64,000 bases of DNA, taken from Marsupella aquatica (Eukaryota > Plantae > Marchantiophyta). A program made the translations under genes and the position numbers. The stretch covers positions 18,811,048 to 18,875,047 of the forward strand of contig OZ316891.1 in assembly GCA_973895155.1 (NCBI GenBank), given 5' to 3'. Under the pieces are notes generated by a model that saw only the letters and a list, made by a program, of their open reading frames with translations, searched no databases and was not told the DNA's origin. Positions 21,862 to 64,000 of the stretch are shown here, in pieces (within the stretch, counting starts at the first letter, position 1; each line of letters starts with the position of its first letter).

Positions 21862-22612
21862 TGTTGATCAAAGACGACATCCACAACAGCATACTCATAA
21901 CTATTCAACGATCAAGTAGTCAATATAGAGAGATACGTGGTTTACCTCCACATGAGGCTACGTCCACGGGAACACACAAGAACTTTACTGCACTCTAGGT
22001 CGACCAACCATACAAGCATCCACAACACAAGCTCTCCTTATCTCTCAATTGGCTCCGTAACAATGAACTGGAGTGTTAATGTTGGGTATTTACTCTTACG
22101 TCTAGGTTAGGTATGACGTGGTTGGTACAACAACGTGGGTTGGTACAACTACGTGGTTAGGTATAACTACGTGATTAGGTACAACTATGTGGTTAGGTAC
22201 AACTACGTGATTAGGTACAACTATGTGGTTAGGTACAACTAAGTTGCACACTATATCATAAGAGGCATGTGTGCTTGGAGAGGTAGAACCAAGGCTCATT
22301 GTTATGGAGCCACTTGAGAGATAGGGAGAGCTTACACTGTGGAGACTCGGTATAGCCGACGGGCTTAGAGTTCAGTAAAGCTCTCTTGTGTGTTCCCGTG
22401 GACGTAGCCTCAAGGAGGTGAACCACGTATCTCTTGTGTCGACTATTGTGCGTTGGATGGTTCATGGGCTTGCCGTTGCGATCGTCGTCTATGCTCAACA
22501 GTTAAGGAGTTATAGAGTGTGCACAACATGACTAACCTAACCTAGTCTGCGACTAAGGTTAGCCCTAACTGCGGTACAATTGTAACTATAGACCTTAGAG
22601 TTAATCCTAATA
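21862..22612 (-). mobile_element. Older solo LTR (host of the nested LTR)
   Basis: Flanked by a TTGTG duplication (21857-21861 and 22613-22617). Ends are TGTTGA...CCTAATA (decayed TG...CA). 21862-22070 is the reverse complement of the 3' half of the inner LTR. Confidence 0.7.
22080..22500 (+). mobile_element. Solo LTR (421 bp) containing an 18-bp minisatellite
   Basis: Ends TGTTGGGTAT...ATGCTCAACA with a perfect GTTAA duplication (22075-22079 and 22501-22505). About 7 copies of acgtggttaggtacaact lie at ~22104-22240. Confidence 0.85.
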
Positions 22613-29958: not shown

Positions 29959-31312
29959 GGCATTCAAAGAGACGAGTCCCTGGAACAGCATTAACTGTAC
30001 CTCGGGGACTCCCCCAAAGCCTCCCGGAAGGAAATCCCTGAGTTTTCCCCTTTTTGCACCCGTCAGTTTTCAGGCCATGATCACACTCGCTGCCCCTGGC
30101 TCCCTCTCAATTAGAGACTTTCTCTCCCTCTCACTTAGAAACTTAATTTCATTCAACTTTCTTATCCTCACTTGTGTAGTGCCTTTTTCCCTTACATCTC
30201 TTTGTGGGAGTATTAGTTTAAATTTCTTGGACTCCATGGAGGGTTCTCGGGTATTGTCCCGGTATTGAAAATAAAACAAAATTGACAGTAGCTGACATTA
30301 TTTAAATTTCTTGGACTCCATGGAGGGTTCCGGGTATTGTCCCGGTTTTGAAAGAAAAAAAACTTGAATTCCATGGAGGCAATAGTTTGACAGTAGCTGA
30401 CATATTTTGACTCCCTTTGCAAAGTCTGGCCCCAGTCTAGTTTTAGTAGTTGATTTATGAGGGGTGGATTACTAAGTGAAAAATCACCTGAGCTCAAACT
30501 CTTGCCACTAAATTCTTCCCCAGTTCATCGTTGTATTCCATGCCTTCCAGACAGCCCATTTAAGTTAATGTATTGAGAAGATTCCAAATTTTACAAGAGG
30601 GAATTGCTGAACATAGATGTTTTGATTTCAAAACACTAAAGTTACAAAGCTAGGCACATTTATGAGCTAGGCATGAATGCATTGGTTACCCATCTGGAAG
30701 GCCTGAAATACAACGATGAACTGAGGAAGAATTTAGTGGCAAGAGTTTGAGCTCAGGTGATTTTCCACTGAATAATCAACCACTCATAAATTAATGACTA
30801 AAACTAGACTGTGGTAGGACTTTGCAAAGAGGGTCAAAATGTGTCAGCTATTGTCAAACTATTGCCTCCATGGAGTTCAAGTTTTTTGGTTTTTTTCAAA
30901 TCCGGGACAATACCCGGGAAACCTCCATGGAGTCCAAGAAATTTAAATAAAATTCCAGCTACTGTCAATTTTTATTTCTTTTCAAAACTGAGACAATACC
31001 CGAGAACCCTCCATGGAGTCCAAGAAATTTAAACTACTGTCAAAAGATTGCCTCCATGGAGTCCAAGAAATTTAAACTAACACTCACACAAAGAGATGCA
31101 AGGGAAAAAGGCACTACACAAGTGGGGATAAGAAAGTTGAATGAAGTTGTCTCAAATTGAGAGGGAGCCAGGGGCAGCGAATGTGGTCATGGACTGAAAA
31201 CTAAAGAGATGGGTGCAAAAAGAGGGAAACTCAGGGTGCTCCTTCCGGTAGGCTGTGGGAGAGTCCCGAGGTCAGTTAATGCTGTTCCAGGGACTCATCT
31301 CTTTGAATGTCC
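29959..31312. mobile_element. Non-autonomous foldback/MITE-like DNA transposon with ~600-bp inverted arms, TA target
   Basis: Left arm 29959-~30570 is the reverse complement of ~30680-31312 (GGCATTCAAAGAGACGAGTCCCTGGAACAGCATTAAC vs GTTAATGCTGTTCCAGGGACTCATCTCTTTGAATGTCC). TA on both sides. Internal repeats ccatggagtccaagaaatttaaa. Confidence 0.88.
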
Positions 31313-32024: not shown

Positions 32025-32146
32025 TCCAAGCAAGAACCGCTTAGGGTATAGTGTGCAACTTAGTTAACCTAACCAAATGTCCAACTATAATTAGCCTAAC
32101 TATGGTTACATGTCATAACTCTCGACCTAAGAGTAAATACCTAACA
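32025..32146 (-). mobile_element. Fragment of the same LTR family as 22080-22500
   Basis: Ends gagtaaatacctaaca (reverse complement tgttaggtatttactc, cf. tgttgggtatttactc at 22080) and shares tatagtgtgcaacttagtt. Confidence 0.6.
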
Positions 32147-35814: not shown

Positions 35815-37259
35815 GAGGGATATGCTCAATAGACCCCCTCCAGCAGAAACTTTACTTGATCAGCCCCCTCATTATGGCCCGTACCCTTTTCCCCATGTAA
35901 GGCCCTTTTCCCCGTGTAAGGCCATACTGCACAGTTTTCAGCCTTATTCTATGACTTTTCAGAGTCCCCATTCAACAATGCAATAATCGGGCAAAAATCA
36001 CAGCGACTGTGCTAAGGTCGATTAGCAACGGGACCTCGTAATTAGAAGTCAAAATCGGGCATTTGCACATCCACGCCGCCACGATCAACATTAGGGTTAT
36101 GTTATGCTAATGCGAATACATTGACATGAATGTATTCTATTTGTAAACTGATCTCCGCATTTTTTAATATCCTCCCATCCCGACTTTTGTCCATGCTCGA
36201 TAACAACTACACTCAACATTCCACGAGGCGCACGACGTGGACACCCTTCCCGTGTGGTACTAAGCCATTTTTGTGGTAGCTTCAGTGGTCTTCAGATGCA
36301 ATCTAGCTTGAGGTAGCTTCAGATACAATGTAGCTTCATTGGAAGGCAAGGAGGCCCATGATACATCTAGACTGCAAGGTCACAACTCGACTTGCAACTT
36401 GTACTGGAAACATTTATTAATAAAAAGCAAGTTGCATTCATTATGTTCTGATGTATAAAAGTTATTCATTCTGCTGTCCGAGACTACCTTCAGTTTGCAC
36501 CTTCAGTTTTGGAAGACATCGTCCACATTGTCTTCACACCACACTTAGCAATTTTTCCAACGACAGGATATTCTGCTTCAAGAAGCCATTTGAGCAGGGG
36601 TAAATGGCCGATGTTGTGGGTTTTGGAAGACATCGTCCACATTGTCTTCGCACCACACTTAGCAATTTTTCCAACGACAGGATATTCTGCTTCGAGAAGC
36701 AATTTGAGCGGGGGTAAATGGCCAACACTAGTGGTTTCACACAAGATGCACATGAGAACTGCAAAACAGTTTCAAAATATGTATAACATCTCTTAAACCC
36801 TAAACTATCGTGCGCCTCATGGAAAGTTGAGTGTAGTTGTCATCGAGCATGGACACAAGCCGGGATGAGAGTATATTAAAAAATGCGGGAATCAGTTTAC
36901 AAATAGAATACACTCATGTCAATGTATTCGCATTAGCATAACATAACCCTAATGTTGATCGTGGCGGCATGGATGTTCAAATGCCCAATTTTGACTTCTA
37001 ATTACGAGGTCCCGTTGCTAATCGACCTTAGCACGGTCGCTGTGATTTTTGCCTGATTACTGCGTTGTTGGATGGGGATTGTGAAAAGTCATAGAATAAG
37101 GCTGAAAACTGTGCAGTATGGCCTTACACGGGGAAAAGGGCCTTACACGGGGGAAAAGGGTACGGGCCATAATGAGGGGGCTGATTGGGGCAAAAAAGTT
37201 TGGAGGGGGCTGATCAAGTAAAGTTTCTCCTGGAGGGGGTCTATTGAGCATATCCCTCC
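35815..37259. mobile_element. Mutator-like (MULE) non-autonomous element with ~420-bp TIRs and 9-bp TSD
   Basis: GTATGGCCC at 35806-35814 and 37260-37268. Arm 35815-~36235 is the reverse complement of ~36808-37258. G-starting long TIRs with a 9-bp TSD are typical of MULEs. Confidence 0.88.
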
Positions 37260-45550: not shown

Positions 45551-45948
45551 TGTTGGAAATGAGCCTCCCTTGTAGCAAGTGTGGCTCAAGGGAGGGTGTT
45601 GGAAATGAGCCTCACTCAACTGACGAGGGATGCAGGCATCAAGGGCCTGTAGCTCAGTGGTAGAGCACTATGATGTACACTGGAGGTACTAGGTTCAATT
45701 CCTAACCGGTCCATGCTGTTGACAATTCCAGCATGGTATCAGAGCCAAAGAACAGGAGTTTCCCTTGTAGCAAGTGTGGCTCAAGGGAGGGTGTTGGAAA
45801 TGAGCCTCACTCGAACTGATGAGGGATGCAGGCATCAAGGGCCTGTAGCTCAGTGGTAGATCACTATGATGTACACTGGAGGTCCTAGGTTCAATTCCTA
45901 GCCAATCGTTCAATTCCTAGCCGGTCCATGCTGTTGACAATTCCAGCA
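45551..45948 (+). mobile_element. TRIM (miniature LTR retrotransposon) with a tRNA-like cassette in each LTR
   Basis: CATAA duplication (45546-45550 and 45949-45953). LTRs TGTTGGAA...TTCCAGCA at 45597-45733 and 45792-45948. tRNA-iMet PBS TGGTATCAGAGCC at 45734 and PPT AAGGGAGGG before each LTR. A deleted extra unit occupies 45551-45596. Confidence 0.9.
45643..45713 (+). pseudogene. tRNA-derived sequence inside the TRIM LTR (second copy ~45839-45928); anticodon unassignable
   Basis: 71 nt. Acceptor stem GGGCCTG/CCGGTCC, D arm GCTC-AGTGGTA-GAGC, T arm CTAGG-TTCAATT-CCTA(A/G). A box TAGCTCAGTGG and B box GGTTCAATTCC are intact; the anticodon stem is mispaired with a 6-nt loop. Confidence 0.8.
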
Positions 45949-48584
45949 CATAAGTCATTACAGGCTAGTGAAAACAAACTAAAAAAAAAACTTTTATATA
46001 ACAATTTGAAAAAAAGCTATGGCCATTTGCTTAATCTGGCCAAAAGCCATCATCTCTGACTTTGAAACTCATAGTATATTGTATAGTTGTAAAGGCGAAC
46101 AAGTTTAAACCCGTGAGTAGAGTTCCCGCCCTGTGGCCCATAACTTATGCAGGAGCCACAAGTCCAACAGGCAGGCATAGCGGCACTCATGCCCAGAGCG
46201 CGTTGACCCCGTTTCCCGAACTCTGAAGCGCTGACATTTTCCTCCGACTTTATCTCGTAAATCGCTGCAGAGTTCAGAGTTGTCAATAGTGAATGGCAGA
46301 TGGCCAGCTAATCCCATTAATCAAGGTTTGTCTTTCTGATGTTTTGTCCTGAGAATAAATTCCTTCTCGTGCTCACAGGAGTCACAGGCCCGAGAACAGT
46401 AACTCAGTAACAGCAGCGAGCGAAAACACAGCCACAGTTAGTAGTGCTTGCTCTCGTCCTTGGGTGAGGAAAGATTTCAGTCCCCTCTTTCATGGTCATC
46501 ATATGAAGATCTTCGGACTGTAGTAGAGTGTAACTCATTGTAATCTTTGGAGGCAAAAACCCCTATGACTGTGGTGCTGTACTGGAAAGCACGAAGCACA
46601 GACACGAGCAACCATTTTTACTAGTTTTACAGTGCAAAGCACATGATCAGTCACGCTCATTTCCTTTGATCCGTGTACTGTGCATTGCAAGTCATGCTCT
46701 TCGTCCGTCACTCTCGAGCTGCAAGCGCTGACTGAATGAATGCTGTAAGTTTCTCAGGTTTCTCTGATTGGAAGAAATGGAGGCAAATGAGCGAGATGTG
46801 ATGTATGCTTGTTGGATGTGTCCGATTCCTGAACTTTGCCTTGACATTTCAGTTTTACTCGGTTATGACGAGTGTCGGCAACTCCGCATACTTACAGAGT
46901 CCGAGAGGGCGACCGCAGAGAGAATGATCTGCCCCGATTGTCAGAAACGAAGCTGCCAAGTTCCAACCCAGAGACACGCTCAGACCTTCCAAAACTCCAG
47001 TAGCTTTCAAGTGCTCTCCTGTAGATAATAATGAATCAACAAAGTTTATAAACAAACCCTGGTGGCTGCCTACTTATTGGGCAAGGGGGTGGGGCAGCAT
47101 AGCAGAAATGGCTTCCAGGGCCCAAAACTGGGTACCGAAGCCTTATTTTTATGCTGAACCAAGGTCTCATCAATTTCTCAGAGCTCGTTTGAGACAGTGA
47201 AGAAGAGCGAACCAAGACTCAACGCATGCAGAGCCTCGTAGAACTAAATTACAAGCATCTCAGGTAGGTCACAGTCCAAAGGTTCGCCAGATGTTGGTAG
47301 CTCCCTTCTTGCGTAGGAGCGTTCATACCAAACCCCTGACTTGCCTTTACTGACGTCTACGTTGCCTCGATTTCCTGTGCCAGTTCAATTAAATGTCTTC
47401 CTGCAAGGAAATGGCTGCTGTTGAACTTGACCTGGTTCTTCTCACAGACTGAAATCCAGAGTGATTGCTTGTAGATCAAGCTGGCTGCTGAGTTCTCACA
47501 GATTCCCAAATGCTTGACGGGTTTGCTCTAGAAGAAAGCGACGAATCATCTTCTCCATGATCGATGAACTGTGCTTCAAAAGGGTCAATCTTGAATCGGA
47601 GAGCTGTGGACGGAATACTCTGCATCGGGAGGCGGCAGTAGCTTCAACATGAATAAATAGAGTAGCGGAACAAAATTTGATGAACTGTCCATCGTACTTC
47701 GTCTAGAAATCTCAATGTGGCTGTAGAAATCCTTGGAATGTTGCTGTGGAAATTGACAATTTAGAAAGAACAGCAGCTGGGATTGAATTTCTAATCCTAC
47801 GCAGTTTTAATATTACTTGACGGACCAATTTTTTACTCAAGCTGGAAGTCTTCTCGTGTTGCGACAGTGCTCTAGACTGACGACAAACTTCATCTGTCTA
47901 GTCTGCTTCGCATTCCGTTGCGTGTTTCTGACTGATGCCCCAATTTTTTGTACAAGTAAAGCATGAAAACAGGGCATTTCGCTCGGACACGACTGTATCT
48001 CCAAATTCGAATCAACGAACTCTCCCAGACATCAAGGCAAGATCTATCAAGGCCGACAAAAAAAAAGACATCCTAAGGCCAACGGCCATCCCTTAATTGA
48101 AGGTAGGTCCGATGGAAAGGCTCAAGCGGGTGCAAGATAAGTCCAAACAACGGGAAATCAGGGAAATTCAGAGAACCTCAGAACCGAGAGTGGGAACTTT
48201 GGGAAGAGATGCAGGTGACCTACGCCATCATTATGTTGCAAATTGTCCCTGTTCAAGATAATAATTATGGACTTACCCAGTCCAGCCGTGCCCACCCCGT
48301 TCAATTGTTCAATCTTCTTTGCTTGTTGTCAACACCGACAACAACGTGTTTCATAATTATCCCGCGTGTTGCCACTCTGGTACCTCCATGGCTCCATCCT
48401 TGCCTTCCCTAGAGCGATGGCTTTCCGAACTTTCCTCCGCATCTTTTGGACAAGACGCATCGACTTAGGTTTTCAGTTGAAACTCCTTGGGAACAAAAAG
48501 ATAAGTAACGTTTGAATGAACTCAAGGAAAAAGAGAAGCATTGTGCAAGTTCGAATCATTATGCACCAACAATTTGTCTCCAGT

Positions 48585-49147
48585 CACTAATAGAAAAAGA
48601 AAAGTCCACCTCACCTCCAGGACAGGTGAGAGGGGTGGGGAGGCATGCACCTTGGCTCCATGAATAGACCTGAAACCCAAAAGATACACCAAAAAAACAC
48701 CATCCTCAGGAACAGGAAAAAGTAGTGAGTTAAAAGCTAAAGCAAAAAACTGACCAAAAGAAATCAAATCCCACCTCTTTTGCACATCATACAACTCCTA
48801 CCCGTGCTCATATGTATGTTTCCTATGCCCGTTGCTGTAGTGAGGTATAGCTAGGATACCTATTATGTTTTTATAATGAGGGATCCCGCCTTTTTTCATC
48901 ATCCATCCCAATACAAAAAAGCTTCTGGAAAGATCCAGAGTTGTTGGATTCAATCGGCTGTTTTCTCTGACCATTGCTTGAGAAAATGTGCACCGTTGGT
49001 ACATATGTGCTTCTTGCTACCCCATAAATGTCCCGGCCCTACTCCCTATGAGCTGGCCCTATTTGTGTCGTGCAATGCACAGGCACATGGCTTGTTTGAC
49101 ATAATAATATGGTATAACCTGCACAGGTGCCACTATTCCTAGTAGTG
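48585..49147. mobile_element. Possible small non-autonomous CACTA element
   Basis: Ends CACTAATAGAAA ... TTCCTAGTAGTG. The 3-bp flanks AGT and TGT match only 2 of 3. Confidence 0.35.
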
Positions 49148-49526
49148 TGTCATACATAGGCCCCCTTTGGATATACTAGGGGAGAGTTGGCCCTCTCCCC
49201 TCTTTTCCTTCCCTTCATTGAGTTCCTTTGCCATTGGGATCATGTTCCTTTGCCATTGAACCCCAATTTAAGGAAAACCAAACTTTGGAAATTCCAAAAA
49301 TCACTAAATATTATTATTTTAATAAAAAGGGGGCGACATGACGCGTGGCTGTGCGTGAAACCCTGAAAATGACTGCAACGTCACATTTTAACCAATCCAA
49401 CTTGACGGGACCAAGAGACATGCTCACGCGAATAATAATAATAGAGAAATAAATCTTTGAGATCCTTTATATATGATAACCTGTATATAAGGAGTTTACA
49501 AATAGTTTCTAGAACGACAATACAAA

Positions 49527-50255
49527 TTAATCTGATCTCATGCCGACTATTATTTTGGAAGCGTCCAAAATTGGGCGTCTATTAAATTGCTCTACTAGAT
49601 ATCTATCTCCATGCCTCTGAATCACAGGGTCTTCCCATAGAGTATGATTATAATCATAATCTCTAAAAATAGATTTAACTGGCCAATCTGGATAATCTCT
49701 TCCATTGGCAATGACAAGCGGCTCACAAGAGTTTGCTAGCTTGCTAAGATACGGAATCAGCAAGTTAATCAGGAAACTGTCGTCGACCGACCCAAAATAT
49801 TTGGGCGGAAATAATGATCCAACAACAGGATCTAAACAAGCATGAAATGCATCGGATTCGATAAGCATTATATTTTGCTGCAGATACGCCTTTGTATAAA
49901 TTCCAACCTTCTCAAAACACTTCAAAAATATCCGCTTATTTGATGTCACCCAATCGCATAAGTAACAATGAGACTGATCCCAAATATACTTAAATGAGGC
50001 CATTTCCATCGCAGTCAAAATAGATGCTAAAATCTGATCTAAAAGGTTCTTCCCAAGAGAGGACCAGATCCCTACATCGAAATTCTCAAAATAGAATCTC
50101 AAGAATTTGTGAAGATGAGGCCTTGGAAAAATGTATATATTCCCAATCCGAATTCCAGTTGAGACCGCCATCAGTCGGGAATGCGGTGCAGTGTAACAGA
50201 GTAGATGCTCCATGTCTAAAACTATGAGCCCATTTTCTCTGCTGCAATGAATCTC
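49527..50255 (-). CDS. FCP1/NIF-like HAD domain exon 3 (open reading frame; candidate alternative last exon)
   Basis: Acceptor ctctacag|GAG (phase 0). Motifs LIVLDMEHLL, FPRPHLHKFL, FDVGIWSS, FKYIWDQSHC, FLK, NIMLIE. The DxDxT motif is degenerate. Confidence 0.7.
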   Translation of the reverse strand, partial: EIHCSRENGLIVLDMEHLLCYTAPHSRLMAVSTGIRIGNIYIFPRPHLHKFLRFYFENFDVGIWSSLGKNLLDQILASILTAMEMASFKYIWDQSHCYLCDWVTSNKRIFLKCFEKVGIYTKAYLQQNIMLIESDAFHACLDPVVGSLFPPKYFGSVDDSFLINLLIPYLSKLANSCEPLVIANGRDYPDWPVKSIFRDYDYNHTLWEDPVIQRHGDRYLVEQFNRRPILDASKIIVGMRSD

Positions 50256-50341
50256 CTGTAGAGAAACACAAGAAGATGCATGAGCCCGTATGAATGGAGT
50301 CATGCGAATGGTCGCGTCACATATTACAGAGACAACATCCT

Positions 50342-51049
50342 CTACACTCTGGCCATTGATAAGTGACGTCTATTGAAGTGCTTGATAAGAACTTGATCCG
50401 CATGTCTCTGCACATACAGATGCTCCCATATATCCTCGTTCAGATCCCAATCTTGATGTAGATTTCTAATCGACCAGATGGGATAATCGAACTTGTTAGC
50501 GAACGCAAGACAAAGCCCTGAATTTGATAGCTTTCATAAATATGGAATGAGGTCATCCCTCAAAAAGACATCATCCAACGATCCTTGAAACGACTTAGCG
50601 AACAATAATCCGCATACAGCTGTCTGGCATGTATGGGAAGGACAGGCATCAATCTGGATTATATTCTTTGGTCGATAATCTTGAAACATATCACGTAGTC
50701 TCTCGATAGATTTGAAGACAACAATCTTATAATTTTTCTTCACATAACCAAGATTCCAACAATGATCCCTCGTGAACACATATATCAGCTGCGACAGGTC
50801 GGTGCTCGACAACACCTCTGAAAGTATCTGATAAACCAGTTTATTGTCAAGAATAGACTAGACCATCACATCAAAATGATCATAACATAATTTTATAAGA
50901 TCATGAAGATGCAGCCTCAGAACGACACATAGAGATCCGATACGAATTCCAGGTGTCGACTTGAGCTGAGGAGTATATTTTGAAACAGAGCACAGGAAGT
51001 TTTCTAGTCCTAAAACTAGAAGTTGACGCGACCTGCTCCACTTAGACAC
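50342..51049 (-). pseudogene. FCP1/NIF-like HAD domain exon 2 with two in-frame stops
   Basis: Acceptor tttacag|GTG (phase 0). Reads through stops at ~50858 (VMV*S for VMVWS) and ~50534 (LIPYL*KL). Collinear with exon 3 (GIRIG, LIPYL.KL.NS, DYP.W, QRH.D, FNRR). Confidence 0.72.
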
Positions 51050-51174
51050 CTGTAAATGAACAATTTGATTCTCATATTATGCAATTGCAAACAACCACGC
51101 GACCGGGCGCGTCACTCCCAAAAGTTCAATTTCAATCAATTTATAAATAATAATTGATAATAAACAATAAATGT

Positions 51175-54100
51175 TTACTTATTGGACTTATCCCGGGCTT
51201 CTATAGCACGGTCTTTTTCGGCAGATAAGTATTTCATAAATTCGTCAAACTTTTCTAAATGGTCTTTATTCCCCTGATTACGAATGATCACATTTCTCCT
51301 CCAAAGATTTGTCTTATCAATATAATCTTTCTCAAGATTTTCTTGAGAGAACGTTGGAATCCCATATCCACTAAGGAGCTCGCGGAATGTCAACTTGTCA
51401 ATTGACATGTCGCATAGATATGGATATAGTTTCTTTCTAAAAAATAGGTCATCATCGAGCCCAGAATATGCATCGGGATACAGCGATGAATAGAAATCAT
51501 TAAGGCTTGTCTTATATGCAGCGTCATCGATAAGAATGACATTCTCGATGTTGTAATCTTTAATATCGGCGGCAATGTCCAAGAGACATTTGACAAATAA
51601 GGGGATGTCATTATTATTCTTCCCAATAAGTCGAGTTGATTCTTGTCCCCATATAAATTTAATACGTTTCAAAACTTCGGGTCTTAGTATCAGCCTTACA
51701 CAAGATAGAATATTCCATTTGAACATGCACGACCAGATCACAATGTCGTATAGATCTTCCACCTTCTCAAGAAATTCCATTAAATCAGGCCTTGGATAGA
51801 TAACCTTGTGCATCTGTCTCACACCCCTTGACCGAATGGGCATCCCAGGGCTGATCTTCTTTGACCAGATAAGTACCCGATTCAGATCAAAAATTACAAG
51901 TCTCTTATGAACCGGTGACTTCTTTGCCGATGGATTAGGCGCCATCTGTACGTGTGATTTTTGTGCCGCAGGGTTTGGAGAACGGACTAGAACGGTCTGT
52001 TTGTTTCCCGCCTCCGGACGATCACCAGACTTTCGGACTGGTGCCTTCGATACTTGATCAGGGGGTTTCGGGATAGGCTTCTGTAAAACATTAAGAAATG
52101 AAAATAAGTTTATAATGCGAACGGTCGCGTGACTACAAAGAGAGACACTGAAATGAAGTGTATTACCTGTACAAGACGGTCGTTCAGTGCTGGAATTCTG
52201 CCAGAAATGTCAATCATAGTAGCACGGATCCCGGTAACTAGGTTACTTATGGATGTCGGCTTGCGGAAGTCCATGTCAAATAACGACAAGACTATCTCCC
52301 TACAGAATTTCTCAATTTGATCCGCGGCAAAATTAATTTCATTTCCTTGACACAAGCACTTGGCGTATCTCAAGATAAACACACCACAACTGTGGCTGTC
52401 ACTCTGGTGAGGAATATCAATCCGATATATCCGTTCCCAACCTGAGAGATCCAAGTTGACACCAGTTCTCCAGCCAATTTCGTCGGCGTAGTACTTCCCA
52501 ACAATATCTAGCACCCCAGGATTTTGTCGATTATGAACTAGAGAATCTAGGTACTCCAGCCGTTTCTCCTTCGGATACAAGACTACCAATGACCAATGTT
52601 CTTTCACAGCATTGTGTACTGGAAAGACTTGTTTGTCGTAATCACTGATTTTTAGCGGAAACTCCTTTGTCCAAGCTGCTCTCTCCTCGTCGAAAATGGT
52701 AGGATCCATGGAGAGAAGCTCAAAATGGTGTGTTTGGAAGAATTTGACAAGGTCTGACTTTCCAACTCTATCGAGAATCAGTTCGAAAAAACTCAAATAA
52801 CCGTTAATTATATCATCGGTGAGCAACTCGCGCGGTCTCAGACACATCATATGTTTCCTCTTGAATGAGTGTTGTAAGAACTTGGTCAATTAGCTCTTCC
52901 ATATCCTTAGAAGGATCAAGGCATTGATCTATTTGACTAGCCAAATTTTCAAAAAACTGCAAAAAACAGAGATTTCAGTACGCCTTCAAATAACGTACTG
53001 AGGTTGTAGCCTAAGGGTTCTACCTCAGAAAACAGAAACAATAACAAATCAATAATAAAATAATGACGTCTATAATAGAAACTTTAAGCTTATAGCTTGC
53101 GAATGACCTTTGGATTGGGTGGATCCAGCCTTTTCGCAGCTGATCTCTTGGGTGCCTCAATCGCAACAACATCCTTCAGCCCTCCTCGAGACCGTAGTGA
53201 TCGCTCCACCAGACCAGTTTGCGAAGGTTGGAGCGATGAGGCGGGAAAACCTTCAAATGGTTATGGCATTTGATTCAAATATTCCACAATCTGGGAATCC
53301 GATTCCAAAATATCCGGTGCCACAATTTCTGCGCGAGTGACCTCTGCAATATATCGAGGTCGAGACCACGAACCCGGTCGCGTCAAGTCAGCTGTTAGTC
53401 TCTTAACGACTTGAGCCGAGTCTGGTGCCAAAAATGTTCCCAGGTCTTGCACTCGATTCTCGGAAAAGTGGACATTATTGATGATTGTCTCCATTCTGGA
53501 TGCAGTGGCAGTCTTCTCCTCGGTAATCAAAAGACTCTTCCAATATTGCAAAGCAAGGACTGCCTGGACTCGGAGCTGCTCCGATGAATATTTATTCCAA
53601 TCATCCAACGAGACCGTACTTAAGGGTGGATCATTAAATTCAAACTCTGGGCGAAGAAAATAGTCTAATATTTTCTTCTTAACTGCAACTGAGGGTGAAG
53701 AAGGCTTCTTCAAATTCAGCCTTATTTTTGGTAGACGTTGTGCCTCAGGAATAAGCGAAAGATCCTTGGCCCTCTCGGCCTCCTTCCTCGCTGCCTCCAG
53801 TCTTCCGGCTTCTTCTCTCTCCAGTCTTGCGGAATCAACCTTTTCCGCCTCCAACTTCTCCGCCTCCACCCTCTCCGGTCTTGCGGTCTTGTCCGCCATC
53901 CTCTCGGCCAGCAGCCTCTCAGCCGCCACACTCTCCGCCTTGGCCCTATTTCCCTCTGTCACTAAAAGGACTCTCGCAGCCTCCACTTTCTTAGCCTGGG
54001 CTTTCTCAGCCTCCGCGTTCTCGGCCTGGGCTTTCTCCGCCTGGGCTTTCTCAGCAAGGACTCTCGCAGCCTCCGCTTTCTCAGCCTCCGCGTTCTCGGC

Positions 54101-57100
54101 CTGGGCTTTCTTAGCCTCCGCTTTCTCAGCCTCCGCTTTCTTAGCCTGGGCTTTCTCAGCCTCCGCTTTCTCAGCCTCCGCTTTCTCAGCCTCCGCTTTC
54201 TCAGCCTGGGCTTTCTTAGCCTCCGCTTTCTCAGCCTGGGCTTTCTCAGCCTGGGCTTTCTCGGCATCCGCTTTCTCAGCCTGGGCTTTCTCAGCCTGGG
54301 CATTCTCAGCCTCGGCTTTCTCCTTCTTCTTCGCGGCAGTTGCTTTTCTAGCTGCTGCCTTTTTCTTCTTAACCTCCTTCTTTTGAAGCTCCTCTTGCCG
54401 GGCCGCCTCTTGTCGGGACGCCTCCTCCTGCCGGGCCGCCTCCTTCTTTTGAAGCTCCTCTTGCCGGGCCGCTTCCTTCTTTTGAAGCTCCTCTTGCCGG
54501 GCCGCCTCCTGCTGGGCCTCCTCCAGCCTGGCCTCCTCCTGCCGGACCGCCTCCAGCCTGGCCTCCTCCTGCCGGGCCGCCTCCTGCCAGGCCTCCTCCT
54601 GCCGGGCCGCCTCCTCTCTGGCCTCCTCCTGCCGGGCCGCCTCCTCTCCGTCCACCTCATGTCGAGGCTCCTGTGTGGCCTCTTCATCAGAGTCCTCAGC
54701 GTCCTCAGAACCCTCCATCTCCTCGCCCTCTTCATTAGCGTCCTCAGCGTCCTTCATCTCCTCTCCGTCACTCTCTTCATCTCCTCTATTGTCGGAATCT
54801 CCGATGTCGTTCTGCGTATCGGTCATCCACTTTGGATCTTGGTCATTGACATCCCCATCCGTGTCACCTTCCGCGTCACCTTCCCCCTCGCCATCCGCAT
54901 CACCATTGCTCCCTGCATCCTCAACATTGAAGCCGCAGTCGACTTGATCTGAATAAAATCAGATCATTTGATAAGAATGACTCACGCGCATATTCGCGTG
55001 AAAAGAAATGTTATGAATGTCCACGCGCATATTCGCATGACGCAATAAAAAGTAAGAGGTTTCAAAAGTAACTTACCTTGGATTGGCCCACTAGGGTACT
55101 CCATTGGTCGAATGTACAATCGATCGGAATCTTTAGAGAGTGCATACTCTTGCAATAATTGATTACAAATATTATCAGGGATATGTTGTTCGTGGAGGAC
55201 ATCCAAAACATCAGCCCTGAGAGCAGTTACGGATGGACGGTACTTCATTAATTTATCTATACATTTTTCTATACTAGCCCGTACTGGGTCAATCAATGAC
55301 AGCGTTGTATCAATTGTCGCCGTGGTGTGTTGCAAGAAACAAGACAACTCCCTATGCGTTGCCACAGGGCAGTAATATTTTACATTGGATCCAGCATCCT
55401 GTAAAAAAAGCCGAAATTAGTTCACAATATTAATTGAGAATATAATAATCTAAATAATCTTAAAATCGAAACCCCAAAATATAAATCTCAAAACTTACCA
55501 TTAAGCACTGGATCAAGTTTGTTCCCTCACCGAAGCATATAGCCCATTCCCCACATTGGACGAATTGACTAACAATACTTTCAAAGAATGGAAGTGTCTT
55601 TTCTGGGGAAGGTGTCATGAACTCGCTGCTCTCTTCAAAATTGGCTATCTTCTCAATATGATATTTGGAGACCAATTGGAACTCGAGGGCTTGTGGATCG
55701 CCCATTGTGCTGAAGGCCAAGCTGTGAAAAGCGTAGGTTACAATAAGCTTCTTCTCCTTCGGCCGCTTCTGAATATAATGGCTATCGATAGCAACGTAGT
55801 GTGTACTTCCCTAATTCCCGTTTGATTAAGTAAGACTCAATGGGAGAGGCTACAATAATAACCATATGGTGTGGTTTTGCCCCTATCTCGCTAGTAGCAC
55901 GAAATAACCCCTCATAGAATGAGCAATTTGGCGGACGCAAATCTCCCATTGATGAGGGATCAAAATAAATCAAGCTCGCAAGGTTCTTGTCTTCACGTAT
56001 GATACAGTCTGCAAACCCAACATTTTGTATATCCTGCAGGGATCGCAATTTCAGCCTCTCACCGACCGGCCGCACTAGTTGGTTTCCTTGACTATCAACT
56101 GATTTCTGTATTCCTTCCACCAACCTGTAGAATATAGGGTCGATCTCCTTCAACAAATTATCATTACTAATATTTACATTTAAGCACTTCTTCAGATAAC
56201 CACTCAACGCATCTCTCAACTGCTTCAGCACCATCTTGTCGAGCTTAAAGCGATCAATCATTCCTTTAACCCGCAATTTCTGCGCTGAATCTGTCAGACT
56301 TTTAAGCTCCGTCCGGGTGGATGTATCCCCGTTGAGTTTACTCAATAATAAAATATCAAACTCAACTTCCGTCTTCTTCTTTATACATAATTGCTCCAAA
56401 CTCATGCTGGTCGTTGACAACACTGGAGCCTCAGAGGACTTCCTCGCCTTCCTAGATTTCACTTTGATACTTCGGTTTTTGAGTATAGACAGTCTTCCGC
56501 TCAACATATATTCCGCTGCCTTTCGAAGAACCGAGTCTGAGCACCCTTGACAAGAACGGAACGTCTTCTTCAGAAGATGATAAGCACATGGATTATCCGC
56601 AATTTTGACGGCGTCCCTCTGTAAAATTCCGTTGTAAATTACAAGCTCTCCTGTCCTTGATAGTTCGTAGACCTCCATCCACTTCTTGAATATTTCGTCC
56701 TCCATTGTAAAGAGAAACGGAGCCAATTCTCCAAATTTCATCATTTTGTTCTTCCCCATTTGAGCCCATGGGCAAACAAAACTCGTAGCTCTCATAAATA
56801 CCTGAAAAACAATGGAAACATGACAATTCTAAGCTTGACGCGACCATTCGCGTGACAAAAGTTTAAACGATAATGTGATCGAAGAGGGATATTTATATAC
56901 CTTCCAATTTGGATGATGATAATGTGATCCAGGCCGCCCAAATGAGTTCCAAATATTACGACACTGTCGTACAATGGTGAGAAACTGTCCTTCTTCCATT
57001 GATGTTTGATGACAGTGGTTCAGAGCTTTCGATAATCCCATCAAATAAACATTATTGTCGTTGTTGAGCGTTGCCCAAAACATTACAGCTTCTACAGTAC

Positions 57101-58143
57101 CGCAAGTGTCTCGTACAACTTGGCTGACTTTGTCGTCCTCTCTCAGCAATTTGTACGCCATTATTGTGTGCTGGCCTCCGAGTATCCAGAAATGACTGGT
57201 CATAATGTCCTCCTCCTTTGGCGATGAATCGTAGGGCGTCTCATTGTAGTCGGGATCTCTGTCGGCCTCCGACTAAACCCACTTCACAGGGACTAAAAAG
57301 CAGCATTGCTTCTTGAACTTTATAGCCAAATGAGAGAGGAGTGAATTCTTTAGCCTATCTATGTAATCCTGATTCCACTCTCGGCACTTGATGTGGTCCG
57401 GTGCAAGATGACAACGTGATGTCTCAACAAAAAATGACTTGCTGTTAAATATATTCACAGCACTATATTCTTTGAGGAAAGAATCGAACAGAGCCCCTCC
57501 ATTCGCTGAGGTAATTACTTTCGGAAGATTCTCCGCCGAGTATACTTCAACCTTGCTCACTGGCGGGGCCTTTCCCAAGCGAAATCCCTGGTTGAAAGGA
57601 ACTCTCTGGAACTCAAGTATGTCAATAATGTATTGACAAATCAAATCTCCCGTTGATCCCTCTGGATCGGAAGGATATCCCACACTAGTAACCTTTTCCA
57701 AGGCGTGCCTTGCACCTAGAAGATCATCGATTCTGGGCTGATTGAAGGTTACATATTGCGTTCGATCCAAATAAATGCTTATTTTGTCTTCCTGCTGGTC
57801 GTCGCTAACTAGCAGAACCAATCCCTCTGTACACTCTTTAACTTTCATGTTCTTCTCAAAGAAACACCCACCCGAGAATTTTTGATCTCTCCAAAACTGT
57901 AGCTTTATCATTTCTTGCCACCACAAGACAGACAGCCCCATTGCGAACGACTATTCCAAAATCGGATATCTCAGTCGATTCAAAGAGATGGATACTCTTC
58001 GTCTCTATTGTTCTCTCTCTGATTGACTTTCCTTGATATGCAAGTATGGATGTCTCCGCGGGAGTCATTTTTGTCTTGGTTTTCTTACGAGAAGCAGCTT
58101 TAGACGAGTCTCTTTTCCGCTTTGAGGTTCCGGTAGGATCCAT
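51175..58143 (-). pseudogene. Large spliced TE-like gene (~2,100 aa): ParB/Srx-like, degenerate N4/N6 DNA methyltransferase-like, acidic and coiled-coil repeats, Ulp1/C48 protease, FCP1/NIF HAD
   Basis: Phase-compatible GT-AG exons: 58143-56901, 56801-55499, 55398-55077, 54948-53108, 52956-52167, 52080-51175. Motifs: REWNQDYIDRLKNSL...FWILGGQHT; LIYFDPS...PEKTLPFFESIVSQFVQCGEWAICFGEGT; CLRPRELLTDDIIN...HWSL...YLDSL...QSDSHSCGVF; VIFDLN...RPDL...IWS...LIDD. In-frame stops at 57273 and 53261; frameshifts near 57860, 55800 and 52890. Confidence 0.72.
53990..54650 (-). repeat. Coding minisatellites (15-bp AEKAQ/AEKAE and 21-bp EEAARQE units) predicting a long charged helix
   Basis: Repeats gctttctcagcctcc / gctttctcagcctgg and gccgggccgcctcct within ORF 53261-54826. 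Confidence 0.85.
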
Positions 58144-58217
58144 TCTGAAATAGACAAATATTGAAAGTTAAACGTTTATTATAAAATACTAACACGCGCA
58201 TGGTCGCGTCGTGCCGA

Positions 58218-58740
58218 ATTACATTTTAGGAACATTTATCCTGACCCAATCTTCTCGCTCATCTTCATCTAACCAAAACCAAAGGTTCCTAAACATGTCA
58301 AGTTCAGATCCTTCAAATCCACCCAGAATGTCCAGCGGCGGGAGAGTTCTGATGGATTCTGTAAATCTTAATGCTACACTCAGTGAAGTCAAATGCCTTC
58401 AAAGCGATTCATATCCTGGTCTATCAGTGAAGTCGTAAGCTACCAAGGTGACCGTCGCCCAAGTACTACTATAAGTAACTATGTGGCACCACTTCTTACT
58501 GACTGTTCGAATGGCGATCAAGTCCATGACCCGATTTTTAATCGCAGTATCCGACAAATTCCCAAGATAGTGGAAAAACTCTTTGACTAATGGCCAAATA
58601 TATTTCTCGACAATATCGTCCGGAAAACCGGGTATCAGGTCTTCAGCTTGACTCCATATCATGTTTCGGTTGATAACCTTTGCACGTGCAATGCGCTCCA
58701 TCATCATTTGATGATGAGATTTTCGATTCATGTCAAAGGA
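58218..58740 (-). pseudogene. F-box-like ORF 2 (one in-frame stop)
   Basis: LIPGFPDDIVEKYIWP...LIAIRTVSKKWCHIV; acceptor ctgcag at 58741. Reads through TGA at 58399 to WLDEDERED...PKM*. Confidence 0.6.
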
Positions 58741-58783
58741 CTGCAGCATAATATGGAAAAGATTAAGAACAAGAACCTATCCA

Positions 58784-59242
58784 TTAAGAACTGGGACCAC
58801 CGAGATTATGAGAAAATCTACCAAACCTTTTGATTAGGACATCTCGTTCTTCCTCATCTAAATTGTTATATTTGTTCGTAGAGAGAGACTCATTTCCGAT
58901 CGGTTTAGTAGGATTTCCTGGGAAAGCCAAATCTAATAAACTCAACTTGATTACACCCAGATGATAGGTATTCCCAACAAGGTGGCGCCATCTGCGACAC
59001 ACCGAAGATAGTCCTACAAACTCATCCAATTCCTTTATTGAGAAATTTCCTGCATTAGCCGAGGAATTAAAAGTCTCCTTGATCCGAGGCCATATCAATT
59101 CCGCGACAATGAAATTTGGAAGTCCAGGTAGTAGTGTTTCAACAAATATAGAATATCCCGCCAGTAGACCATCTTGGCTTCTGTCCAAAACATCAAATAT
59201 TGGGCATAGATATCTGAAGCTCTCCAGACCAGGTTTGCCCAT
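58784..59242 (-). CDS. F-box-like ORF 1
   Basis: LLPGLPNFIVAELIWP...LSSVCRRWRHLV; paralogous to ORF 2 (LDEEERD vs LDEDERE). The 5' end is uncertain. Confidence 0.55.
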   Translation of the reverse strand: MGKPGLESFRYLCPIFDVLDRSQDGLLAGYSIFVETLLPGLPNFIVAELIWPRIKETFNSSANAGNFSIKELDEFVGLSSVCRRWRHLVGNTYHLGVIKLSLLDLAFPGNPTKPIGNESLSTNKYNNLDEEERDVLIKRFGRFSHNLGGPSS

Positions 59243-59365
59243 GACTCTTTTCAGCCAAATGATATATCCCAGAGATTATTTTCTACAAATCAGAATGTAT
59301 AAACAATTCTTTGAGAGACTGATTTTTTCGAGTCACAACATGATAAATCATAAATGTTGCTTCGT

Positions 59366-61380
59366 CCTCTAACAGAACCAGTCAATGAGAGAGCTACCTC
59401 AGACGCGAATGGTCGCGTCAACTGCCCCTAAATGAAACCTTACCTCCTCTAACAGAACTAGTCAATGAGAGATCTACCTCAGATGCGACTAGTCGCGTCA
59501 ACTGGTCCTAAAAGGAACTTTACCTCCTCTAACAGAACCAGTTAATGAGAGAGCTACCTAAGACGCGACTGGTCGCGTCACCTGAACCTAAACAACTATA
59601 TCCACTGAACCTTCCTTGTGGAGATTTGGATATGGTACGCGCTCAGTAAATCTATCCAGTTTCCTTCTCACACGCGACTGGTCGCATCAACTGGTCCTAA
59701 AAGGAACCTTACCTCCTATAACAGAACCAGTCAATGAGAGAGCTATCTCAGACGCGATTGGTCGCGTCACCTGAACCTAAACAACTATATCCAGTGAACC
59801 TTCATTGTGGAGATTTGGATATGGTACGCGCTCAGTAAATCTATCCAGTTTCCTTCTCACACGCGATTGGTTGCGTCAACTAGTCCTAAAAGGAACCTTA
59901 CCTCCTCTAACAGAACCAGTCAATGAGAGAGCTACCTCAGACGCGACTGGTCGCGTCAACTGGTCCTAAAAGGAACCTTACCTCCTCTAACAGAACCAGT
60001 CAATGAGAGAGCTACCTCAGACGCGATTGGTCGCGTCAACTGAACCTAAACAACTATATTCACTGAACCTTCCTTGTGGACATTTGGATATGGTACGCGC
60101 TTAGTAAATCTATCATGTTTCCTTCTGACACGCGACTGGTCGCGTCAACTGGTCCTAAAAGGAACCTTACCTCCTCTAACAGAACCAGTCAATGAGGGAG
60201 CTACCGCAGACGCGACTGGTCGCGTCAACTGGTCCTAAAAGGAACCTTACCTCCTCTAACAGAACCAGTCAATGAGAGAGCTACCTCAGACGCGACTGGT
60301 CGCGTCAACTGAACCTAAACAACTATATTCACTGAACCTTCCTTGTGGACATTTGGATATGGTACGCGCTTAGTAAATCTATCATGTTTCCTTCTGACAC
60401 GCGACTGGTCGCGTCAACTGGTCCTAAAAGGAACCTTACCTCCTTTAACAGAACCAGTCAATGAGGGAGCTACCGCAGACGCGACTGGTCGCGTCAACTG
60501 AACCTAAAAGGAACCTTACCTCCTCTAACAGAACTAGTCAATGAGAGAGCTATCTCAGACGTGACTGGTTGCGTCAACTGAACCTAAACAACTATATCCA
60601 CTGAACCTTCCTTGTGGAGATTTGGATATGGTACGCGCTCAGTAAATCTATCCTGTTTCCTTCTGACACGTGACTGGTCGCGTCAACTGGTCCTAAAAGG
60701 AACCTTACCTCCTCTAACAAAACCAGTCAATGAGAGAGCTACCTGACGCGACTGGTCGCGTCAACTGAACCTAAACAACTATATCCACTAAACCTTCCTT
60801 GTGGAGATTTGGATATGGTACGCGCTCAGTAAATCTATCCAGTTTCCTTCTGACACGAGACTGGTCGTGTCAACTGGTCCTAAAAGGAACCTTACCTCCT
60901 CTAACAGAACCAGTCAATGAGAGAGCTACCTCAGACGTGACTGGTCTCGTCAACTGAACCTAAAAGGAACCTTACCTCCTCTAACAGAACCAGTCAATGA
61001 GAGAGCTATCTCAGACATGACTGGTCGCGTCAACTGAACCTAAACAACTATATCCACTGAACCTTCCTTGTGGAGATTTGGATATGATACGCGCTTAGTA
61101 AATCTATCATGTTTCCTTCTGACACGCGACTGGTCGCGTCAACTGGTCCTAAAAGGAACCTTACCTCCTCTAACAGAACCAGTCAATGAGATAGCTACTT
61201 GACGCGACTGGTCGCGTCAACTGAACCTAAACAACTATATCCACTGAACCTTCCTTGTGGAGATTTGGATATGGTACGCGCTCAGTAAATCTATCCAGTT
61301 TCCTTCTCACACGCGACTGGTCGCGTCAACTGGTCCTAAAAGGAACCTCACAATATTTTCACGCGACTGGTCGCGTCAAC
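59366..61380. repeat. Higher-order tandem array of 80-bp (A, about 14) and ~110-bp (B, about 8) units, each carrying the palindrome GACGCGAC-TG-GTCGCGTC
   Basis: Order approximately AAAB AB AAB AAB AAB AB AAB AB plus a terminal palindrome at ~61360; about 23 palindromes. Confidence 0.92.
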
Positions 61381-62339
61381 AGCTCAAACAACTTTTGGAC
61401 AATAGGATAATACAGTGATACAACTGTGATTACTGACTCGTACGGACAAGGAAATCCGAGTAAGCATGATTTCATTCATTTGTATTCATTCATTTGTATT
61501 CATTCATGAACTTTACAATAATTCAGATGTTTGAGCTCTGTCATTGTGAAACTATTATATATCAAAAGTTTAGAGAATGATCCAGCTAAGATGATTCAAT
61601 TTAGCAGTCTACTGGTTGTATTCGTCAATTAAAGGATTCAGTGTAATGAGATTCATATAACATGAGAGTTTATATGATTAAATTCACAGCGTGCAAGTTT
61701 GTAATGACTTACTTAAGACGATTCAGGTTGTATTTTAATTAGTGAGTTTGTATGATTCACACATATTTGAGTTTACAAACAAACCGCATTATGAAAACTC
61801 AGCTTAACAATCAAGAGAAATTTTAGCAAACCACAATCAACACCAGCAGAAAATGTAGAAATTGCACCTGAATTCTGAAAAATTGATGTACTCGTCTGAG
61901 AGATTGACGTCCAAGCACTTGAAGACCTTGTTGCGGCATTCCAGAAAGTAAATATAAGATTGAAGATATTAATATGCTAAGCAACAACAACACAGCTTCT
62001 ATACTTCTATACATAGAGCTTCGCTGCCACCAATTGAATAACATGTGCTTAATGCTAAGGAGCTCATTATGTCGAGTTAAAAAGACTCTTTCAGAAGTAC
62101 AATCAAAGCTGTGGATAGGCAAACTGAGCATGAATAAAAGCGCACTAAACCTGAAGATTCAAAGAGGTGAAACAAACCTGAATGCTGATGGAAGGAGCTG
62201 AAACAAGCTGCCAAAAAGTAGTTCGAGCTGCTGAAACACATTGATCGAGTTGATATGAGCTTAAAATTGGCTGACACGAGCTGATACAAGCACTCCCAAA
62301 AAGCTAGCTGCAATGAACTAGCAAACTAGAAGTGAATAC

Positions 62340-62545
62340 GAGCTGTAAATGCGAGCTGCAATGCGCCAACGAGCTCCTAGTCGAAACGATGGACAACTAC
62401 TAAGAGCTGCAACGCGCCGTCAAGCACCTGACCACAACGAACGAGCTGCAATGCGCCAACGAGCTCCTGGTTGAAACGATGGACAACTACTAAGAGCTGC
62501 AACGCGCCGACAAGCACCTGACCACAATGAACGAGCTGCAACGAC
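62340..62545. repeat. ~91-bp tandem repeat near the putative 5' end of the element
   Basis: gagctgcaatgcgccaacgagctcc...aaacgatggacaactactaagagctgcaacgcgcc.caagcacctgaccacaa occurs twice, plus scattered gagctg motifs. Confidence 0.75.
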
Positions 62546-62884
62546 AAAAATGAAATCCAGGGCAGGAGCGAGAGCGAGAGCGACGAGAGCAGGCGCGCGA
62601 AAGTCTAGGGAGCGAGAAACAACAACAATGAACAGTGAACTCGAGACCGCGGGCGCCGACACTAAGGAAGGACTAATTAGGGTATTGTTTTAGCATAACC
62701 CTAATAACAGCCTAGCGACAAGAAGGTTCCAGATGATCTCCGTACAGTCCACCATCGACTGAACAAACTATGCAATCGTGAGAAAAAGATTACCGGATTC
62801 CTTTTGATTTGCCGTACTAAAGGAGATTTCTATTTGATCGCCAATTTGAAATTTAAACCGGTAATTATGCAACTGCGAAAGATT

Positions 62885-63125
62885 GTTAGTGGGGACCCCC
62901 GGATCCGGATCCGGATCCGTATCTTCACTATATCTGCCAATTCAAATCCAAAATGTGAACGAACGACAACTTTCTCACGATCGTTCCATCACGTAGTGGA
63001 GGCGAATTTCAAAATCATTCCATTTTGGTAGTGGAGACCGTCGGATCCGGATCCGTACTCCACTCTCTATCTTGCCAATTCAAACCCAAACTCTAAACAA
63101 CGTAAAACGATTCTCACGGTCGGGG
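62885..63125. repeat. ~140-bp imperfect duplication with GGATCC repeats and ttctcacg motifs
   Basis: tagtgg.gacc...ggatccggatccgta...tgccaattcaaa...ttctcacg at ~62887 and ~63029. Confidence 0.65.
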
Positions 63126-64000
63126 AGAACCGATATTCAAAATCAATCCTGTACAATGATTCTCACGACTGGAGACTCAACCAATTTTCAAAATCAAAAT
63201 CGAGTCCAGATGAACACATCCTCCATGGAGTCAATAGACTGATCTCATTGCTCACGGATCATTCTTCATTTTCAGTTTCTCCTGACCAGGATACTAGCTG
63301 GGCTCTCAGCGGAGGCTGATCCAAGGCACATTTGAGGTGGAGCAGATTGGATCATTCGACTATTCCTGCCGGAGGCGGAGCTCATTCAAGCAACGCTGGC
63401 GCAGTTCTTGTTGTATCACCTTCAATCTTGGGGAGAGCACATCCGATCAAGCGGGAGAGTTGCGACGAAGCGAGACGACAAACATTTAGAACCTCCATAG
63501 TCTGCCTCATTCATCGAAGCATTCTAGCGGACCAACAAAGAGCGGCTATTCTGAAATCACAGTCTGGTCGAGGATTTTGATCTTGATACGATCAACAAGT
63601 TATCATTCTCTGGTGGTGGGATTCGATCACGATACTCAAGGAAATTGGAGTTCGAAGGAGGAGGCTTAGTTGGCTGGGACGAGGAGGCTACGCTGGAAGG
63701 AAGAGGCTTGGCTAGGAGGAGGGTTTCCGCCAACATCGAAGGGTTGCCGCCAACATTGCTGAGACCACACGCAACTGAATAACTTGTAAGTATCAATCAG
63801 CATTAATTCCGCAATGAAGGAGGAGAGTAGTTGCCTTAAATCACGCATTCAATGCATGAATTGAGTCAATGAAGTTATGGTCCAATTTCTCACTCCAATT
63901 TTGATCAATCCATTTTTCAAGTCCAATACAGAAGCAATGTATCAGAAGTACTAGTAGAGGATCCGAATGAATTCTCTAGTCTAAAATTGTATGGCGTACG

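Follow-up and report, generated by a model that had tools for sequence, protein, structure and literature searches.

VANDAL/VANC is an anti-silencing system of non-TIR MULEs of Arabidopsis, as described in PMC5735166 and PMC10398659. According to the former, VANC motifs lie in introns and in intergenic and terminal regions and are multiplied by tandem repeats, and VANC proteins contain repeat-rich variable regions; a review (PMC13317346) describes KIU-type VANC genes as carrying Ulp1. Spm/TnpA and AtMu1 self-activation, as presented in 10.64898/2026.08.24.746577, likewise place an element protein on repeated cis sites of cognate copies, the regulator being the transposase or a derivative of it. 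PMC4738411 reports an inactive methyltransferase in DIRS1 and the existence of methyltransferases fused to ParB-HTH.

We analysed a 64-kb stretch of DNA from Marsupella aquatica (the window), which contains 30 copies of a 16-bp, CG-rich palindrome when at most 2 arm mismatches are tolerated. As in the VANDAL/VANC layout, all 30 lie in a tandem array or in predicted introns: 23 in the array, 7 in six of the eight predicted introns of the downstream gene, and none elsewhere. A further likeness, to the KIU type, is an accessory gene that combines Ulp1 with internal coding repeats. By contrast, the accounts cited give VANC sites as 8- to 9-nt non-palindromic words, and the present element differs from VANDAL in its methyltransferase fold, NIF and F-box-like domains and in an amplified unit bounded by predicted splice sites. 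A Pfam search of the gene returned only Ulp1, NIF and a weak F-box, and detected neither a VANC-type nor a MULE transposase domain. We suggest that the element works like VANDAL/VANC in layout; its Pfam domain content sets it apart, and we do not class it there. The parallel with Spm/TnpA and AtMu1, in which an element protein acts on cognate copies, is putative here, and unlike in those systems no transposase or derivative was seen in the 64-kb window.

Our preferred reading, to which we assign a probability of about 0.5, is that the array is a tandemly amplified intron-like unit whose palindrome is a likely site for the element's own protein, within a multicopy, VANDAL/VANC-like bryophyte element. 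It draws on direct observation of the unit anatomy, the array ends, the confinement of the palindrome to the array and predicted introns, the domains of the gene and the related arrays in other copies. The array shares the strand of the downstream gene and lies in what is likely its 5' non-coding region. Its principal features are as follows.

59365..61380, minus strand: composite tandem array of 14 A units (78-80 bp), 8 B units (109 bp) and a 50-bp 5' piece, with 23 palindromes
61361..61376, no strand given: palindrome P0; the first donor follows 9 nt downstream without an intervening acceptor
61170..61351, minus strand: 5'-most donor-to-acceptor segment, 182 nt, with a GTGAGG donor; homology to inner units starts at its GT
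60176..60250, minus strand: example of a 75-nt intron-like segment, followed by AGGAG; one of 6 such among 14
59987..60170, minus strand: example of a 184-nt segment with two palindromes; one of 8 in the 182-184-nt class
59369..59443, minus strand: last 75-nt segment; repeat homology ends 4 nt past its AG

The A units, B units and 50-bp piece result from cutting the array at its palindromes. An earlier, sequence-only reading had described the array as a 75-nt intron plus a 5-nt microexon repeated about 14 times. This periodicity does not hold: on the minus strand, the distance from donor to next acceptor is 75 nt in only 6 of 14 segments and 182-184 nt in the other 8, where a 109-bp B unit has been inserted and brings a second palindrome with it. 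P0 also falls outside that intron model, since no acceptor separates it from the first donor. The reading was accurate as to the minus-strand succession of acceptor, AGGAG and donor, the GTGAGG at 61351, the last AG at 59370-59369 and the presence of two mutated AGs; the B units, the multicopy, decayed character of the element and the DNA-site-like behaviour of the palindrome were absent from its account.

The block of acceptor, AGGAG and donor is restricted to A units within the array and to its minus strand. AGGAG follows 13 of the 14 acceptor-like sites and is itself followed by GTAAGG (12 cases) or GTAAAG (1). Overall, the gene strand, and only that strand, holds 14 GT donors and an intact AG at 12 of 14 acceptors. 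The mutated acceptors, at 60445 (AA) and 59718 (AT), both have a second AG 2 nt downstream that would give a 3-nt exon. AG-GTRAG donors number 12 on the minus (gene) strand of the array versus 0 on the plus strand. Dinucleotide shuffling of the 80-bp unit, taken as a circle, gave a strong donor in 3.7% of 20,000 trials, and YAG plus 3-9 nt plus a strong donor in 1.2% (sense strand) or 1.4% (either strand).

Homology to the inner units runs from the first GT to 4 nt after the last AG, the extent expected of a duplication that took in an intron and the opening bases of the exon behind it. We take this match of the array ends to predicted splice sites as modest support; tandem duplication of a unique piece has about one free boundary. 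No frame of the array holds an ORF of more than 62 codons, and its sense strand contains 8 ATGs. Because the array shares the gene strand, ends at GT and AG+4, carries a motif otherwise confined to introns and lacks a longer ORF, its origin as a tandemly amplified 5'-UTR intron, which the sequence-only reading had proposed, is plausible. The points that do not fit that origin are the lack of preferential conservation of GT/AG, the 53% GC content, the terminal TAG and the placement and predicted pairing of the branch-like A, all considered below.

The palindrome is a clearer signal than the splice pattern. In 100 shuffles of the coding span, the mean number of palindromes was 0.14 and the maximum 1, versus 7 observed, all of them in predicted introns that make up about 10% of the span (934 of 9716 nt, a figure that also counts a ninth, palindrome-free candidate lying between the F-box segments and entered with inexact ends). 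Homologs support two of the eight introns; the other six were placed by eye, with the palindrome positions known, using GT-AG ends, low GC and reading frame. Each of six unrelated introns has kept the motif once or twice, in one case (56838-56853) in reversed orientation. The sequence-only reading put the palindrome 33 nt from the AG in the array, as in the coding introns; we measured 34 nt from the 16-nt core, a spacing that recurs approximately in three of the six palindrome-bearing coding introns (34, 35 and 36 nt) and not in the others (46, 47 and 49 nt).

Among the 14 intron half-sites, 4 of 6 positions are invariant in 14/14. The intron sites show 7 departures from perfect arms, and none is compensatory: 6 disrupt the pairing and 1 turns it into G-U. 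It would appear that the sequence of the palindrome, rather than its pairing, is maintained, which fits a predicted double-stranded DNA site for a dimer; since the variants break RNA pairing without compensation, we favour a DNA site over an RNA hairpin. Against a binding site, 2 of 8 predicted introns have no motif, and the array palindromes are no better conserved than the remainder of the unit (11/224 versus 36/1036 cells changed). Scans of metagenomes gave 127 pattern matches, 0 of them confirmed, and 0 matches to the unit motif.

The gene downstream of the array is a cassette of the following parts.

58784..59242, minus strand: F-box-like ORF 1 (Pfam E=0.02, under the curated cut-off, weak)
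58223..58776, minus strand: F-box-like segment 2 (E=0.004, under the cut-off), with an in-frame stop at 58399-58401
58145..58222, minus strand: predicted intron (GT-AG, low GC, frame) with a palindrome at 58194-58209
56901..58144, minus strand: exon with a ParB/DUF3723-like region (weak lead); in the window copy, frameshift near 57870 (57865-57871) and stop at 57273-57275
56802..56900, minus strand: homolog-supported intron with a reversed palindrome at 56838-56853
55499..56801, minus strand: exon with a helical region and a predicted beta-class amino-methyltransferase fold with degenerate catalytic motif; frameshift at 55798 in the window copy
55399..55498, minus strand: intron without palindrome, donor supported by homologs
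54949..55076, minus strand: predicted intron (GT-AG, low GC, frame) with palindromes at 54984-54999 and 55023-55038
53108..54948, minus strand: acidic exon with 15-bp repeats (AEKAE type) and an in-frame stop at 53261
52957..53107, minus strand: predicted intron without palindrome (GT-AG, low GC, frame)
52167..52956, minus strand: Ulp1 / Peptidase_C48 exon (E=4.7e-17)
52081..52166, minus strand: predicted intron (GT-AG, low GC, frame) with a palindrome at 52115-52130
51175..52080, minus strand: NIF phosphatase-like domain 1 (E=1.1e-9)
51050..51178, minus strand: predicted intron or spacer (GT-AG, low GC) with a palindrome at 51097-51112
50348..51049, minus strand: NIF domain 2 (E=2.8e-8), with two stops read as X
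50256..50347, minus strand: predicted intron (GT-AG, low GC, frame) with a palindrome at 50302-50317
49527..50255, minus strand: NIF domain 3 (E=5.5e-14)

Across the intron 56900-56802, homologs P0004, P0005 and P0019 read through in the register of the predicted junction and P0027 leaves the frame at the donor; at the donor 55498, P0001, P0003, P0006, P0013 and P0021 diverge. A splice-site matrix built from the eight introns was overfit (leave-one-out donor scores of -6 to 10; it favoured the AG 2 nt downstream) and was dropped as evidence. The coding 15-bp repeats occupy 53923-54680 in about 23 and 16 copies, which encode AEKAE- and EEAARQ-type peptides. The window flanks hold ordinary plant genes (TauE, GYF_2).

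The product of 55499-58144 (minus strand), with its ParB-like region and degenerate beta-class methyltransferase fold, belongs to a bryophyte family that is unannotated and has no Pfam model. According to a profile search among 1.8 billion representatives, the family comprises 22 clusters; 3 of the 10 looked up are proteins of the liverwort Calypogeia fissa. A literature search covering main texts and a minority of the subscription journals found no account of the family, the element or any tandem array of 5'-UTR introns in a mobile element of plants. An AlphaFold model of the homolog P0001 (pLDDT 77.5) matched CcrM (E=3.2e-6), M.BceJIV, M.HpyAVI and RsrI in the PDB, with E-values from 3e-6 to 4e-4. 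Against beta-class N6A/N4C methyltransferases, the TM-score by target was 0.36-0.56 at 7-13% identity, and there were phage matches as well. The model points to a beta-class N4C/N6A methyltransferase fold in the family. The canonical catalytic motif of this class is (D/N/S)PP(Y/F/W). At the motif IV position, the aligned homologs read DPSS, DCSV, DSTL, DGTI, DATL, DSSI and DFSA, degenerate in all that cover it; the repetitive P0022 (E=1e-4) was excluded from the alignments. PDB sequence searches with the family gave no match, and the ESM Atlas no usable match for P0001. A second model (P0004, pLDDT 70.6, with a poor N-terminus and one misaligned alignment row), which spans the expected helix-turn-helix, had no PDB match at E<=0.001, and a search for longer proteins with 57276-57950 yielded 0 of 459 candidates. 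The ParB-like assignment, which we treat as a lead only, is weak: Pfam gives E=0.14, and the Atlas scores are 0.93 for DUF3723 and 0.90 for a cluster with ParB_N at 35%.

Single features of the element recur in other systems. In fold type, and in its plant or mobile-element context, the predicted methyltransferase can be compared with Marchantia DN4MT1 and bdelloid N4CMT, which are described as eukaryotic beta-class N4C/N6A enzymes of prokaryotic origin, and a degenerate catalytic methyltransferase motif in a mobile-element setting is likewise reported for DIRS1 elements (PMC4738411). A large element with an F-box domain is described among Zisupton/KDZ DNA transposons (PMC12062965), and a DUF3723-like gene in a large element among fungal Starships; unlike both, the present locus showed no CxC/KDZ or tyrosine-recombinase domain in the ORFs scanned.

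The region is present in 4 sequencing runs from 2 organisms, in contigs that span the gene; none of these runs is catalogued as RNA, which carries no information on expression. Each run contributed 447-1595 contigs, in identity classes of 99+, 95-99, 90-95 and <90%. Variation was read across 54960-59445, which includes one array unit. Contigs of other copies show both A-A and A-B junctions with the same 5' junction, and they pile up 4.7- to 9.9-fold on the bin with the single unit, where contig depth is not equal to copy number. They differ from the window copy at the stop at 57275 and at both frameshifts (55798, 57865-57871). Judged from these comparisons, the array is a trait of the family and the window copy is decayed. 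Contigs from 2 of 4 runs carry a 17-nt palindrome insertion at 59281, and contigs from all 4 carry unrelated extra sequence at 58880; both are absent from the window copy, which has probably lost them. The true last acceptor ahead of the F-box ATG may therefore lie near 59246.

On the basis of copy diversity, the multicopy element is probably mobile. No transposase was found in the ORFs and frames scanned, including six-frame Pfam searches of 63225-64000 and 47000-48400, and a comparison of 47500-49700 with 61400-64000 for terminal repeats or target-site duplications returned nothing longer than 14 nt; the element may continue beyond the end of the window (64000). At 62887-63057, two 27-nt stretches that are related to each other and contain (GGATCC)n-type palindromes lie about 140 bp apart; they are possible subterminal repeats. 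At 49165-49200 (minus strand), a GC-rich hairpin is followed directly by CTAG, without the usual spacer, and may or may not be an end of this element; it resembles a Helitron 3' end. Two 90-bp copies, 96% alike, GCAGCTC-rich and without palindrome, occupy 62352-62541, in the likely 5' region. Elsewhere in the window, we noted two long inverted repeats, at 29961-31309 and 35815-37258, which are MITE- or foldback-like and whose arms reach 195 and 352 nt with 90-93% complementarity; a tRNA-like, SINE-type sequence with two 90-bp copies at 45618-45903; and a 460-bp element at 21953-22412 whose 29-nt inverted ends are perfect, which encloses an 18-bp tandem array and which is matched in part, in inverted orientation, at 32037-32146.

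The CpG observed/expected ratio is 0.85 in the coding span versus 0.56 in the flank, which could fit a protected element or simply a young one. Changes in the array are concentrated at CG/CHG sites (33/440 versus 34/1522, p=1e-6). Given this enrichment, and with palindromes no better kept, the window copy appears to have been methylated, not protected.

Under the preferred reading, an ancestral 5'-UTR intron with one palindrome would have been duplicated along with 5 nt from the start of the exon that follows it, and a later round would have added the second motif-bearing piece, B. A dimeric protein, most likely the ParB-like / methyltransferase-fold product of the element, would bind the palindromes and sustain the activity of the element, in the way that VANC acts on VANDAL. 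The array can be regarded as a predicted bank of sites because the motif layout, in introns and non-coding DNA and multiplied in tandem, is that of VANC targets, and because some VANC genes carry Ulp1. With a donor and an acceptor in each unit, splicing could rid the mRNA of the 23 sites and the 8 upstream ATGs, either in a single long intron or piece by piece, and an (AGGAG)n leader would be a by-product of unit duplication.

The best-placed alternative, although we regard it as unlikely, is neutral amplification, in which slippage or unequal crossing-over multiplied a 5'-UTR intron that bore the motif, the copy number has no function and the inner splice sites are passengers. The sequence-only reading had proposed comparing the conservation of GT/AG with that of neighbouring bases as a check on its intron model, and the outcome goes against that model and is what neutrality would give: 2/54 GT/AG cells are changed versus 36/1036 elsewhere in the unit (Fisher p=0.71), a comparison of low power among related units of a decayed copy. 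As the palindromes fare no better, neither feature stands out. The units are 85-100% alike and arranged in higher-order blocks of 189, 269 and 456 bp, as from recent duplication, and the window copy is a pseudogene. What neutrality leaves unaccounted for is the retention of the motif in six unrelated introns, an array common to copies in 2 organisms, and amplified pieces A and B that, out of all non-coding pieces, both bear the motif.

It is more doubtful that the array works as a series of introns and 5-nt microexons whose stepwise or recursive splicing yields an (AGGAG)n leader, which would adjust expression through delay, retention or skipping. On the donor side, GT alone shows 0/26 changed cells, all 13 inner donors retaining it; the 11-nt block of exon and donor has 1/143 changed cells versus 21/699 at other non-CG/CHG positions (p=0.15); and the inner donors are nearer the consensus than the terminal sequences from which they would derive. 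Both mutated acceptors have a spare AG, plant microexons of 1-15 nt exist, and, as reported in PMC8831610, plants do splice 5-nt exons flanked by short introns. Most of the microexons of up to 15 nt described there are solitary, conserved coding exons in a T-rich context, unlike the 13 identical non-coding pentamers here, which are predicted from DNA alone and lie between GC-rich, near-identical units. The acceptor side is atypical, however. The GC content of the 75-nt unit is 53%, above the 23-46% of the eight predicted coding introns, and its last bases are TAG versus CAG in 8/8 of them. The branch-like motif of the sequence-only reading, TTGAC, is present, but its A lies only 14 nt from the unit end and is predicted to be paired: the unit folds at -25.2 kcal/mol (z -2.4), with the branch-like and pyrimidine region in a stem with the unit's 5' part, whereas the folds of coding introns are mostly unremarkable (z +0.5 to -2.0). 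The indifferent conservation of GT/AG also tells against a microexon leader, which, moreover, does not include P0 and leaves the retention of the motif unexplained. We are equally sceptical of a composite version of the proposal, with ParB/parS-like self-recognition, the palindrome in nearly every intron, an array formed by intron duplication and a leader spliced through 13 five-base exons to (AGGAG)n.

There is little to recommend the array as an untranscribed upstream enhancer or promoter for host factors, with the splice-like words as relics or chance. Its TGACG-type sites resemble the ocs element, and the roughly 1% of shuffled units that show the splice pattern is not negligible across many satellites. 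Many array sites do begin with TGACG, a TGA/bZIP half-site (for the motif name, PMC11893830), but conservation does not cover TGACG: immediately ahead of the core, 9 of 14 intron half-sites have C and 4 have G. The match of the array ends to splice sites also argues against an enhancer, as does a CpG-rich, CT-rich stretch upstream, at about 62550-62700, that resembles a transcription start. Least probable of all is a palindrome acting as an RNA hairpin that aids intron splicing or is processed to small RNA: the stable fold of the 75-nt unit and the position of the motif 34-49 nt ahead of the AG would suit it, but 6 of 7 variants break the pairing with none compensating, the short introns (78-129 nt) limit that distance anyway, and a scan of 49000-64000 gave no Rfam match.

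If the array is an amplified intron-like unit that serves as a bank of sites for the element's own protein, the locus would represent an independent, bryophyte origin of the VANDAL/VANC strategy, achieved with different proteins. The rule that it suggests is that an element may gain binding sites at no cost to its mRNA by duplicating an intron. Were the microexons used, the array would also be a natural test bed for the splicing of many consecutive 5-nt exons.
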